The notes beneath the pieces were generated by a model. The model was not told where the DNA came from. It made no database searches and was given only the letters and a program-made list of their open reading frames with translations. Of a stretch of DNA of 64,000 bases, positions 1,872 to 37,062 are shown piece by piece. Positions within the stretch are counted from its first letter, which is position 1. Each line of letters starts with the position of its first letter. The position numbers and the translations under genes are program-made. This DNA is from Escherichia coli (GTDB lineage: Bacteria > Pseudomonadota > Gammaproteobacteria > Enterobacterales > Enterobacteriaceae), in assembly GCF_024223415.1 (NCBI RefSeq), contig NZ_CP100500.1. One strand, written 5' to 3'.

Positions 1872-4762
<2,891 letters not shown>

Positions 4763-5021: not shown

Positions 5022-6032
5022 ATGACGACGATGCTGGAAGTGGCGAAGCGCGCCGGGGTTTCAAAAGCGACCGTTTCCCGCGTGCTTTCAGGTAATGGCT
5101 ACGTCAGCCAGGAGACTAAAGATCGCGTGTTTCAGGCGGTAGAAGAGAGCGGTTACCGTCCAAACTTGCTGGCGCGCAATCTGTCGGCGAAGAGTACTCA
5201 GACGCTGGGGCTGGTAGTGACCAACACGCTTTACCACGGCATTTATTTTAGTGAATTACTGTTTCATGCCGCGCGAATGGCGGAAGAGAAAGGGCGGCAG
5301 TTGCTATTGGCAGATGGTAAACACAGCGCCGAAGAAGAGCGCCAGGCGATTCAGTATCTGCTGGATCTGCGCTGCGACGCGATCATGATTTATCCGCGCT
5401 TTTTAAGCGTGGATGAAATTGATGACATCATTGACGCGCACAGTCAGCCGATAATGGTGCTTAATCGCCGCCTGCGCAAAAATAGCAGCCATAGCGTCTG
5501 GTGCGATCATAAACAGACCAGCTTTAACGCCGTGGCAGAGTTGATAAACGCCGGACATCAGGAGATTGCTTTCCTTACCGGCTCGATGGATTCCCCCACC
5601 AGCATTGAACGTCTTGCCGGGTATAAAGACGCGCTGGCGCAGCATGGTATTGCGCTCAATGAAAAACTTATCGCTAACGGTAAATGGACGCCCGCCAGCG
5701 GGGCCGAAGGGGTAGAAACGTTGCTCGAACGTGGGGCTAAATTTAGCGCGTTAGTTGCCAGTAACGACGATATGGCGATAGGTGCGATGAAAGCGTTACA
5801 CGAGCGCGGCGTAGCGGTGCCAGAGCAGGTGTCAGTTATCGGATTCGATGATATCGCAATTGCCCCCTATATCGTTCCGGCGCTCTCCAGCGTAAAAATT
5901 CCGGTGACTGAGATGATTCAGGAAATTATTGGACGGCTGATTTTTATGCTCGATGGCGGGGATTTCTCACCGCCGAAAACCTTCAGCGGAAAACTGATCT
6001 GCCGCGACTCACTCATTGCTCTTTCGCGATAA
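5022..6032 (+). CDS. ascG: LacI-family repressor AscG
   Basis: ORF 4956..6032; start moved to MTTMLEVAKRAGVSKATVSRVL (HTH) giving 336 aa. Confidence 0.92.
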   Translation: MTTMLEVAKRAGVSKATVSRVLSGNGYVSQETKDRVFQAVEESGYRPNLLARNLSAKSTQTLGLVVTNTLYHGIYFSELLFHAARMAEEKGRQLLLADGKHSAEEERQAIQYLLDLRCDAIMIYPRFLSVDEIDDIIDAHSQPIMVLNRRLRKNSSHSVWCDHKQTSFNAVAELINAGHQEIAFLTGSMDSPTSIERLAGYKDALAQHGIALNEKLIANGKWTPASGAEGVETLLERGAKFSALVASNDDMAIGAMKALHERGVAVPEQVSVIGFDDIAIAPYIVPALSSVKIPVTEMIQEIIGRLIFMLDGGDFSPPKTFSGKLICRDSLIALSR

Positions 6033-33507: not shown

Positions 33508-33843
33508 TTATATAATCGCCATCACTTTCCAGGCGAGCCCATAGGCCAGCGCACTAAGCAGTGTTGGGATGATAATGCTGCGTGTTTTATAGAAACTGGC
33601 ACCCAGTACCGCGAAGCCGACCAGCGTGGGCACGAAACGGCGTGTATCGTGCATCACTTCTGGTGCGGTAGAGACAACCAGCAGAGCGCATATCGAGGCG
33701 ATGCCAATGGTGTCGAGCAAAATACCTACCGCGCCACGTTTGGTTGGGCGGGCATTACCCACACGCAGGCGCAGCGGCAAATAGCGGAAGCAATAATTCG
33801 CTGCGCCAACCAGTAACCCAAGCAGCAGAACCTCATAGCTCAT
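33508..33843 (-). CDS. ygaH: branched-chain amino acid (L-valine) exporter small subunit YgaH
   Basis: 111 aa AzlD-like membrane protein. Confidence 0.88.
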
Positions 33844-34570
33844 CGGGCGCTCCTTGCCAGAATGCCTGGATTAACGCAGTGAGGCAGCCACAGACAATGC
33901 CTGCCAGAATGGCGACGGGAATAGAAAATAGCGTTACGCCTGCAAGGGCACCAACTAACGCTGCGGTAACGCAAAGAGATTGTTTGCGCTGGAAAGAGGC
34001 GAGCAGGAAACTCATAAAGAGTGCCGGAAGCATAAAACCTAATGCTGCTTCAACGGCGGGATAACCTTGCAGCAAGCCGCTGCCGGAGAATGCCCCTATT
34101 ACCGTACCAAATACCCACGATGACCATGAACTGAAGGCAATGCCGATCATCCAGTTCTCGCTCCAGCGGCGATTATTGCGTACCAGTTTTGCGGTGGCGG
34201 CGGCAAAAACCTCATCCGTCAGGCCAAACGCCCATAGGGCTGTTTTCGATTTTTGCAGACGCTGAATAATACGGCTACGCAGTGACGGGCCATACAAAAC
34301 ATGGCGAACATCCATTGCCATGACGGTCAGTGCAGCAACCCACAAACTACTCCCTGCTGCCAGCATCGCGGTAATGACGAACTGGCTCGCGCCTGCATAA
34401 ATGATGCAGGAGAAAAAAACGCTTTCGAGAGGAGAGAATCCCAGACGGGTCGCATTCAGACCGAACGCAAAGGCCACCGGAATATAACTAATAACAATCG
34501 GTAAACTGTCTTTGCATCCTTCCATGAAGGTCGCCGAACCAGGAGCAGGCTGTGGAGTAGGGCTTTCCAT
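33833..34570 (-). CDS. ygaZ: branched-chain amino acid exporter large subunit YgaZ (AzlC family)
   Basis: 245 aa; 11-nt overlap with ygaH. Confidence 0.88.
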
Positions 34571-34693
34571 AGAGTGTACGCTTAACGATTGTTAATATTA
34601 TAAATAGACTGAATGAATATCTTAACCTTATCAGACTGATGGGCTTCTTAACACCCTTATAAGTGTAAAGCCACGAAAACGGTTGCTGATTGC

Positions 34694-35878
34694 TTAATTT
34701 GCGGCTTCCTGACGATGAAAACCTCGCCACCAGACCAGTAAGTTAACCAGGGCAATCGTCGCGCCAGCCAGACAAACGCCAGCCCAACCGCCATGTTGCC
34801 AGGCTGAGGCTGAAATTAGCGAACCGGCGGCACCGCCAATAAAGTAGCTGGTCATGTAACCTGCGGTCAGGCGATTACGCGCATCAGGATGTATTCGATA
34901 AATTACCGTCTGGTTAGTGATATGCACGCCCTGCACGGTGAGGTCCAGCACCAGGATGCCGATAATCAGTGCCAGTACGGAAGTGTGTCCAAACCAGATT
35001 GCCAGCCATGAAAGTAACAGCAGCAGCAGACCGAAAGTTGTGGTGTGGTGCGATTTGCCCTTGTCGGCAAAACCGCCCGCCGGACGAGCGCTCAACGCTC
35101 CGGCAGCTCCCGCAAGCCCAAACAGACCAATGACACCATCGCTGTAGTTAAAAGGTGGAGCGGCAAGCAAAAAGGCCATTGAGGTCCAGAGAATGCTGAA
35201 GTTGGCAAAGGTCAGGCAGCCCAGCAACGCGCGGGTGCGCAGGATCTTATTGCTGATAAACATACTGAAAACGGAACCCAACAACTGTGGGTAATTGAGG
35301 TGGGTTTCTGATTTCATTTGTGGCAGACCACGCCATAATGCCAGCGCCATCAGTGCCATTAACACCGAGGCAACCCAAAAGACGGTGCGCCAGCCGCCGA
35401 GGTTTGCCAGTAACCCGGCAACGGTTCGTGCCAGCAAGATCCCCAACAGCAGACCGCTCATAATGGTGCCAACCACTTTGCCGCGTTTGTCCGGTGAAGC
35501 CAGCGTCGCTGCCAGTGGAACCAGAATTTGTGCCACGACTGAGAATAAACCGGTTAATGCCGTACCGAGGATCATCATCGCCAGCGACTGACTGCTGGCG
35601 GTAATCAACATGCCGCATGCCGCCAGTAAGGTCATCGAGACAATCAGGCGGCGGCGTTCAAACATATCACCGAGGGGAACAAGAAACAGTAGACCTGCGG
35701 CATAGCCCAACTGCGCGGCGGTAACAATAAAGCCTGCCGAACTGGCGGAAAGGGAAAAGTTACGCGCGATGGTGTCGAGCAATGGCTGGGCGTAATAGTT
35801 ACTGGCTACCGCCAGACCGGTGGCGATAGACATCAGCACGATCAGCGCCGGGCTAAGCTCATGATTAGGTTTAGTCAT
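34694..35878 (-). CDS. ygaY: MFS transporter YgaY, uninterrupted here
   Basis: 394 aa continuous ORF with about 12 hydrophobic segments. Confidence 0.8.
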   Translation of the reverse strand: MTKPNHELSPALIVLMSIATGLAVASNYYAQPLLDTIARNFSLSASSAGFIVTAAQLGYAAGLLFLVPLGDMFERRRLIVSMTLLAACGMLITASSQSLAMMILGTALTGLFSVVAQILVPLAATLASPDKRGKVVGTIMSGLLLGILLARTVAGLLANLGGWRTVFWVASVLMALMALALWRGLPQMKSETHLNYPQLLGSVFSMFISNKILRTRALLGCLTFANFSILWTSMAFLLAAPPFNYSDGVIGLFGLAGAAGALSARPAGGFADKGKSHHTTTFGLLLLLLSWLAIWFGHTSVLALIIGILVLDLTVQGVHITNQTVIYRIHPDARNRLTAGYMTSYFIGGAAGSLISASAWQHGGWAGVCLAGATIALVNLLVWWRGFHRQEAAN

Positions 35879-35978
35879 TATTTTTGTTCATCAGGTGATG
35901 ATTAAGCTGGAAATCAATAATAGCGGATGTTGATGAATATGGGATGAAAGATAGATTGTTGAAATGTGCGGTGTGGTT

Positions 35979-36060
<82 letters not shown>

Positions 36061-36069
36061 GAATAAAAA

Positions 36070-37062
36070 TTACTTCTGCGCTGCCAACGCCTCATTCACC
36101 CAGCCATCGAACTGTTGCTGGTGGGCTTTGATCCAGCCATCAACGTGGCCCTGAATATCGCCTTCTGAGGCTTTGCCGTCATGCATAATGGCGTTCTGGG
36201 CGTTAATATCTGCCACTGGCAACTGCATAATGGCAAACAGTTTCGCTGCTGCCGGGTTTTTCTCGGCCCAGGCTTTATTGGCAACGATATGCATGGTGCT
36301 GACCGGGAAGCCGTAATTCGCGCCATTCGGCAGTTTGGTATCGGCATTTTTATCGCCCGGCAGTGCAGAGAACGGCACCTGCAACCAGACCACATCTTTC
36401 CCTGGCTTCAGCTCATTACTCACCCAGTACGGCGTCCAGGTGTAGTAAAACACCGGTTTGCCCTCTTTGTAGCGACTGATGGTGTCGGCCATCATCGCTG
36501 CGTAGTTCCCCTGATTATGCGTCACGGTGTTGGTCAGTTCATACGCGGCAAGCTGGTGGTTGATCGCACCTTCGCAGCCCCAGCCTGGGTTACAACCGGT
36601 TAAATCCGCTTTACCGTCGCCGTTGGTATCGAACAGTTTGGCGATCTTCGGATCTTTCAGTTGTGCGATGTTGGTGATTTTGTACTGGTCGGCGGTTTTC
36701 TTATCGATCAGGTAACCCTGTGCCGCGCCGTTAACAAATACCCCTTCACGATAAAATTTCTTATCGCCACCGGCAGCTTCGTACATGTTGTCATGCAGTG
36801 GCGTCCAGTTCACGGCGGTGAAGGTTGCATCGCCGGAAGCAAGCGAGGTGTAGCCAACGTTGTAATCCACTTCGCTGGGTTTATTGACGGTATAACCTAA
36901 TTTCTCCAGCGCACGACTGACCAGCAGTGTCTGGAAGGTTTCTTCGGTGATGGTGCTTTGAACTGGATTAACAGTAATGCCTTTGCCCGGCAGATCGGCA
37001 GCAAAAGTTTGTGTAGAGATAAGCGTGGCAAACGCTGTCGCAAAAAGTACGCTATGTCGCAT
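36070..37062 (-). CDS. proX: glycine betaine/proline ABC transporter periplasmic binding protein ProX
   Basis: ORF 36070..37110; start at [21 protein letters not shown] (signal peptide) gives 330 aa. Confidence 0.93.

Follow-up and report, generated by a model that had tools for sequence, protein, structure and literature searches.

The ygaY gene lies on the minus strand of a 64,000-nucleotide stretch of the Escherichia coli contig NZ_CP100500.1 (here called the window), where positions 34694 to 35878 form one unbroken open reading frame (ORF) of 394 codons, from ATG to TAA, in both the ORF listing and an independent translation. At the base composition of the window, 394 stop-free codons would arise by chance with a probability of ∼7 × 10−9. 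A sequence-only reading of this DNA, which gave no strand, had described the frame as uninterrupted, and retranslation agreed: the frame starts with ATG, has a single terminal stop, and contains no premature stop. The ORF order likewise bore out the placement of ygaY beside ygaZH. The same-strand neighbors are proW and proX upstream and ygaZ (245 amino acids [aa]), ygaH (111 aa), and mprA/emrR (176 aa) downstream, an order that matches RefSeq genomes (proVWX, MFS transporter, ygaZ, ygaH, emrR, and emrA). The YgaY protein of the window is 100% identical to WP_021557117.1 of strain SCU-316, which is annotated as “MFS transporter.” The features of the locus are as follows.

33833 to 34570, minus strand: ygaZ, subunit of an AzlC-type L-valine exporter, 245 aa, the downstream neighbor (ORF and annotation of identical synteny)
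34597 to 34625, minus strand: sigma-70 promoter of ygaZH (TTAAGA-17-TATAAT), located between ygaY and ygaZ (sigma-70 scan)
34694 to 35878, minus strand: ygaY, 394 codons followed by TAA, encoding a 12-transmembrane-helix (12-TM) MFS transporter in the YnfM family (TCDB 2.A.1.36) (ORF, Pfam MFS_1, and AlphaFold2 model)
35610 to 35623, minus strand: perfect 7-bp tandem repeat within ygaY (alignment with K-12)
35879 to 35970, minus strand: conserved 92-nucleotide (nt) region next to the ygaY ATG, probably promoter and 5′ untranslated region (strain alignment, from which the promoter role is inferred)
35980 to 36060, minus strand: two REP-like palindromes (BIME) after the proX stop and outside ygaY (sequence and alignment)
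36070 to 37062, minus strand: proX, binding protein of the glycine betaine/proline ABC transporter, the upstream neighbor (ORF, with the annotated start giving 993 bp, and annotation)

An intact ygaY is already known: thousands of RefSeq genomes list it as “MFS transporter,” and the K-12 copy is likewise on record as a pseudogene. The frame as such has little discovery value, and the K-12 ygaY is in routine use as a neutral integration site. In the published papers that name ygaY, it figures solely as a pseudogene, as the anchor of an H-NS bridge, or as a control or integration site, and we found no functional data on it among them.

Pairwise alignment with K-12 located the disrupting mutation as a 7-bp gap at nt 256 to 262 of the ORF. 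The MG1655 gene (b2681) is annotated as a 1,178-bp pseudogene and the DH1 copy as “frameshifted”; together, the MG1655 annotation and the deletion confirm the earlier statement that ygaY is disrupted in K-12. The two sequences represent the same locus and gene (K-12 YgaY is UniProt P76628) but are not identical. The window carries two perfect copies of the repeat, GCGGCAT GCGGCAT (nt 256 to 269; codons 86 to 90, AACGM; TM3), and reads through to 394 aa, whereas K-12 keeps one copy and reaches a stop at codon 89, which cuts the product to 88 residues and leaves 14 stops in the original frame. Putting the 7 bp back into K-12 gave a clean 394-codon frame with no further lesion. Its product differs from the window protein at two residues (N210D and S263G), and the two genes are separated by 27 synonymous and 2 nonsynonymous changes (dN/dS = 0.025). 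That the restored frame is clean and nearly identical indicates that the K-12 lesion is recent and the only one.

Apart from the 7 bp, the window and K-12 are identical over the 5′ 362 nt (nt 1 to 362) and the 3′ 156 nt (nt 1030 to 1185), and all 29 differences fall within nt 363 to 1029. The 5′ haplotype of the window is thus that of K-12 without the deletion. Comparison of alleles showed that the first T of the repeat (nt 262) produces Cys88 in the window, where most alleles have Gly88; other alleles contain imperfect repeats, GCGGCAGGCGGCAT and GCAGCGGGCGGTAT, that encode Gly88 and not Cys88. An exact match to the 87-nt haplotype that contains the perfect repeat occurs in 677 of 5,426 genomes, E. 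coli C among them. We infer that a GGC-to-TGC substitution (Gly88 to Cys88) may have made an imperfect repeat perfect and prone to slippage, and that replication slippage would then have collapsed it in the K-12 lineage.

The codon for residue 88 (window positions 35615 to 35617, in TM3) specifies Gly in most Escherichia and Citrobacter sequences. The single Salmonella ortholog compared has Cys88, as does the window, in a different codon context (GCGGCTTGCGGAAT), and the position therefore tolerates both Gly and Cys.

Across 5,426 complete E. coli genomes, ygaY was matched in 5,418, with at least 80% of the gene in 5,413, and it was always chromosomal. An 80-nt probe spanning the K-12 junction had a perfect match in 354 of the 5,426 genomes (353 under a strict E value cutoff), and the remaining genomes aligned with it only with a gap. 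In an even sample of 60 matches, every recognizable name or source label was that of a K-12 derivative (MG1655, BW25113, W3110-type, DH5alpha, C600, J53, JM109, MC4100, and TG1, among others). Nearly all records had such a label; the few without one had genomes of about K-12 size, and no natural isolate could be identified. These data bear on whether the K-12 pseudogene call could be an artifact of annotation or sequencing, the two sequences being really equivalent. We found no point in support of this explanation and regard it as having practically no chance of being correct, as the same 7-bp junction recurs in ∼353 independently assembled K-12-derived genomes and the gap produces all 14 in-frame stops.

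Among non-K-12 genomes, the footprint of the gene was exactly 1,185 bp in 36 of 36 full-length matches (from a 40-match sample spread across the whole-gene results). Eight non-K-12 strains (seven diverse natural isolates and BL21[DE3], with O157:H7 included) had an intact, unflagged 394-aa coding sequence that we retranslated. The population sampling shows that net indels are rare, while nonsense substitutions were checked in these eight strains. An intact ygaY is the species norm, found in ∼93% of complete genomes, and its loss by the 7-bp deletion is a trait of the K-12 lineage.

A loss of ygaY that is independent of, and unlike, the K-12 lesion was observed in PCP06021, an E. coli isolate from Galapagos seawater. 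There (contig positions 4001 to 4463), a natural deletion that takes out ygaZ has fused approximately codon 53 of ygaY with the beginning of ygaH.

Whole-gene identity to the window allele reached at least 99% in 21 of the 5,418 genomes, and four strains (SCU-316, O78 strain 3, GPEC1446, and NCTC10444) were identical to it. With so few close matches, the allele might be taken for a rare, odd variant. We rejected this, as the allele combines common haplotypes in an ordinary mosaic: in a set of 10 alleles, 4 sites are private to it, and its protein shares 99% identity with the common forms. The middle of the gene (nt 363 to 1029; window positions 34849 to 35516) differs from K-12 by 4.3%, and this divergence between identical ends points to intragenic recombination.

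We compared ygaY with its relatives within and beyond the species. Between the window allele and eight other E. coli alleles, dN/dS ranged from 0.025 to 0.065; it was 0.046 against the Salmonella ortholog and 0.043 against the Citrobacter ortholog, with a dS of ∼1. By these substitution ratios, ygaY is under strong purifying selection. Orthologs of 391 to 394 aa with 92 to 99% identity are found in Shigella, E. fergusonii, E. marmotae, E. albertii, Citrobacter, and Salmonella, those of Citrobacter and Salmonella all being 394 aa long, and every one listed is named merely “MFS transporter.” The sequence-only reading had suggested that this strain may carry a functional exporter. Our analysis supports that suggestion with two qualifications: its strain-specific wording makes the gene seem less common than it is, as the gene is intact in most complete genomes and in sister genera, and the word “exporter” derives from relatives of YgaY.

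The gene order in Citrobacter is that of the window (proVWX-ygaY-ygaZH-mprA-emrAB). In Salmonella, ygaY directly follows proX without ygaZ or ygaH, and a 496-bp gene-free gap (contig positions 5186 to 5681) precedes mprA. This arrangement speaks against any necessary coupling of ygaY function to the valine exporter; a functional tie between ygaY and ygaZH, which we had considered, is weakened by it. A search of the literature for STM2812, the locus tag in Salmonella, returned nothing.

To characterize the upstream region, we aligned the proX-ygaY spacer across strains. The 92 nt before the ygaY ATG are identical in six of seven E. coli strains, including those in which the distal part of the spacer is different. 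Within them lies a −10-like hexamer, TATTAT (35922 to 35917, minus strand), held in a core, CCGCTAT(T/G)ATTG(A/T)TTTCC, that is common to E. coli, Salmonella, and Citrobacter. Our scan of this spacer found no consensus sigma-70 promoter, and no strong −35 element or Shine-Dalgarno sequence was recognizable in it, so that ygaY may be expressed weakly or only under certain conditions.

The distal half of the same spacer is filled by the palindromes at 35980 to 36060, which we take to be REP elements from the REP consensus and whose copy number varies by strain. The spacer is 191 bp long in the window, K-12, O157, APEC O18, and G12 and ∼290 bp in L725, ECONIH4, rl0044, and BL21(DE3), the aligned ECONIH4 spacer having an extra REP pair. 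In M114, it measures 452 bp and contains an unrelated insert.

On the other side of the gene, a terminator scan of the ygaY-ygaZ spacer found none. The TTAAGA and TATAAT hexamers in this spacer are those of the constitutive ygaZH promoter listed by Shimada et al. (PMC3946193). Transcripts of ygaY can be detected in K-12, where their level increases after hyperosmotic shock, above all when StpA is missing, and ygaY anchors an H-NS bridge to the downstream regulatory element of proVWX (10.1101/2023.07.10.548347).

The protein has the attributes of an MFS member. Its Pfam MFS_1 (PF07690) score is 141.1 bits against a gathering cutoff of 33.4 (E = 5.3 × 10−41). In the Kyte-Doolittle profile, 11 hydrophobic segments are strong and one more, at residues ∼336 to 358, is weaker, in agreement with the approximately 12 segments noted earlier, and basic residues are gathered in alternate loops. 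An AlphaFold2 model built on an alignment of 77 diverse homologs (pLDDT, 95.3; pTM, 0.93) shows the MFS fold, with twelve TM helices arranged as two bundles of six and a linker helix at residues 196 to 209, and has TM-scores of 0.84 to 0.87 to MFS crystal structures. The core of motif A is present in the TM2-TM3 loop, though not every position (residues 68 to 77, P-L-G-D-M-F-E-R-R-R); among the 77 homologs, P68 never varies, and conservation of G70 and D71 is at least 90%. A second copy of the motif (G-G-F-A-D-K-G-K) is located in the TM8-TM9 loop.

The subfamily is less easily assigned. No NCBIfam equivalog or subfamily model reaches its cutoff for YgaY, so that no substrate can be transferred. 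The DHA1 subfamily models (Bcr/CflA, EmrD, Cmx/CmrA, and SotB-like) all score below cutoff, with best scores of 63, 52, 51.7, and 48.9 bits against cutoffs of 401, 303, 400, and 200.9, respectively. The full-length matches below cutoff are to efflux families (SotB-like PRK03545, Bcr/CflA, Cmx/CmrA, and MxcK). In a sequence search, the PDB yielded only weak partial matches, to GlcP, Qdr2, and EmrD, the best of them being to the sugar importer GlcP over the N-terminal half only. In a Foldseek search of the PDB, on the other hand, the top hits were the exporters SotB, MdfA, and NorA (TM-score, 0.78 to 0.90).

The DHA1 antiporter motif C (GxxxGPxxGG) is absent from TM5, which reads G142-L-L-L-G146-I-L-L-A-R151, and the whole protein contains no GP dipeptide. 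As motif C is missing, we do not place YgaY in DHA1. Its likeness to SotB (6kkk/6kkl), MdfA (4zp0 and 6euq), and NorA (8tte) is one of fold, with a root mean square deviation of 2.3 to 4.4 Å over ∼380 to 395 alignment columns. Sequence identity to these proteins is 15 to 17%, and YgaY differs from them in lacking motif C and any DHA1 NCBIfam match above cutoff. Although YgaY is not filed as a DHA1 member, the modeled structural neighbors support the view that it may work like a DHA1 exporter.

A paralog offers a further point of comparison. In an entry given in PMC5417439, YgaY (P76628) is TCDB 2.A.1.36.3, of the YnfM family. YnfM, the founder of this “acriflavin-sensitivity” family and a proton-dependent exporter of glutarate and other dicarboxylates, shares with YgaY the 12-TM architecture and an arginine in TM5. 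The K-12 YnfM (b1596) aligns with YgaY over its full length (residues 1 to 390) at 26% identity (E = 9 × 10−21), and R151 of YgaY, at least 90% conserved in the 77 diverse homologs, aligns with the YnfM arginine. Glutarate export by YnfM has been reported both in E. coli BL21(DE3), where it is CCCP sensitive, and in Corynebacterium glutamicum; in BL21(DE3), deleting ynfM alone abolished glutarate efflux (PMC12622518). YnfM is only a distant paralog, and YgaY did not make up for its loss in BL21(DE3). As ygaY is intact in that strain, YgaY is not a redundant glutarate exporter under those conditions. Export of glutarate by YgaY, which the analogy with YnfM would suggest, is made unlikely by the same data.

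Taken together, the ygaY of the window is very probably the wild-type, functional-looking allele of a conserved enterobacterial gene that encodes a 394-aa, 12-helix MFS secondary transporter of the YnfM family. From homology and fold, our best guess is that YgaY would operate by the usual rocker-switch mechanism of the MFS and export a small metabolite, possibly an organic anion, in a proton-coupled manner. This reading draws on the nearest solved folds (the exporters SotB, MdfA, and NorA), on the CCCP-sensitive export of glutarate and other dicarboxylates by the paralog YnfM, and on the near-invariant TM5 arginine (R151) common to both. More tentatively, YgaY could actively export a small metabolite of physiological relevance, maybe an organic anion bound through the TM5 arginine; its role would have been hidden because almost all transport genetics in E. 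coli was carried out in K-12, the single lineage without the gene. We consider this stronger claim possible, with the odds somewhat against it.

An opposite direction of transport, with YgaY as an importer (a solute:H+ symporter), seems unlikely to us. The MFS fold does not dictate direction and the antiporter motif C is absent; in addition, the strongest N-terminal profile similarity is to the aromatic acid/H+ symporter TIGR00895 and the glucose importer GlcP (PDB 4lds), and ygaY adjoins the uptake system proVWX. Set against this are the full-length profile matches, which are to the SotB-like PRK03545, Cmx/CmrA, Bcr/CflA, and MxcK efflux families, the closest structures, all three of which are exporters, and YnfM, which exports in the assays done in E. 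coli and Corynebacterium. A different objection is that the frame may be intact and the gene cryptic, that is, hardly expressed or dispensable, so that K-12 lost nothing. The upstream spacer, with its lack of a sigma-70 consensus promoter and of an obvious Shine-Dalgarno sequence, is compatible with this, as are the facts that K-12 thrives without ygaY, that the deletion serves as a neutral control or integration site, and that most of ygaY is missing, along with ygaZ, from one natural isolate. A cryptic gene would, however, hardly be expected to have a dN/dS of 0.03 to 0.06 within the species and ∼0.045 across genera at saturating dS, a length and position conserved from Escherichia to Salmonella, and a 92-nt upstream region more conserved than its own synonymous sites. 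The K-12 transcripts that rise after hyperosmotic shock (10.1101/2023.07.10.548347) also speak against it, and we consider crypticity quite improbable.

K-12 is atypical at ygaY, and knockout collections and fitness screens based on it are therefore uninformative on YgaY. If YgaY is indeed an exporter with a hidden role, strains with an intact allele (the present one, BL21, E. coli C, and pathogens) would be distinguished from K-12 by a phenotype in efflux or tolerance, which should come to light once the 7 bp are restored in K-12. The lesion, a simple and repairable collapse of a 7-bp repeat, allows a clean isogenic test of function.

YgaY is among the conserved enterobacterial transporters still without an assigned substrate. 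Its wider family comprises 1,153 representatives of 50%-identity clusters at an E value of ≤10−30. One ENA protein of 596 aa, encoded on a 5.4-kb contig, scores 1,078 bits at 72% identity and outranks full-length homologs of identical size; it probably reflects an internal duplication or an assembly artifact.
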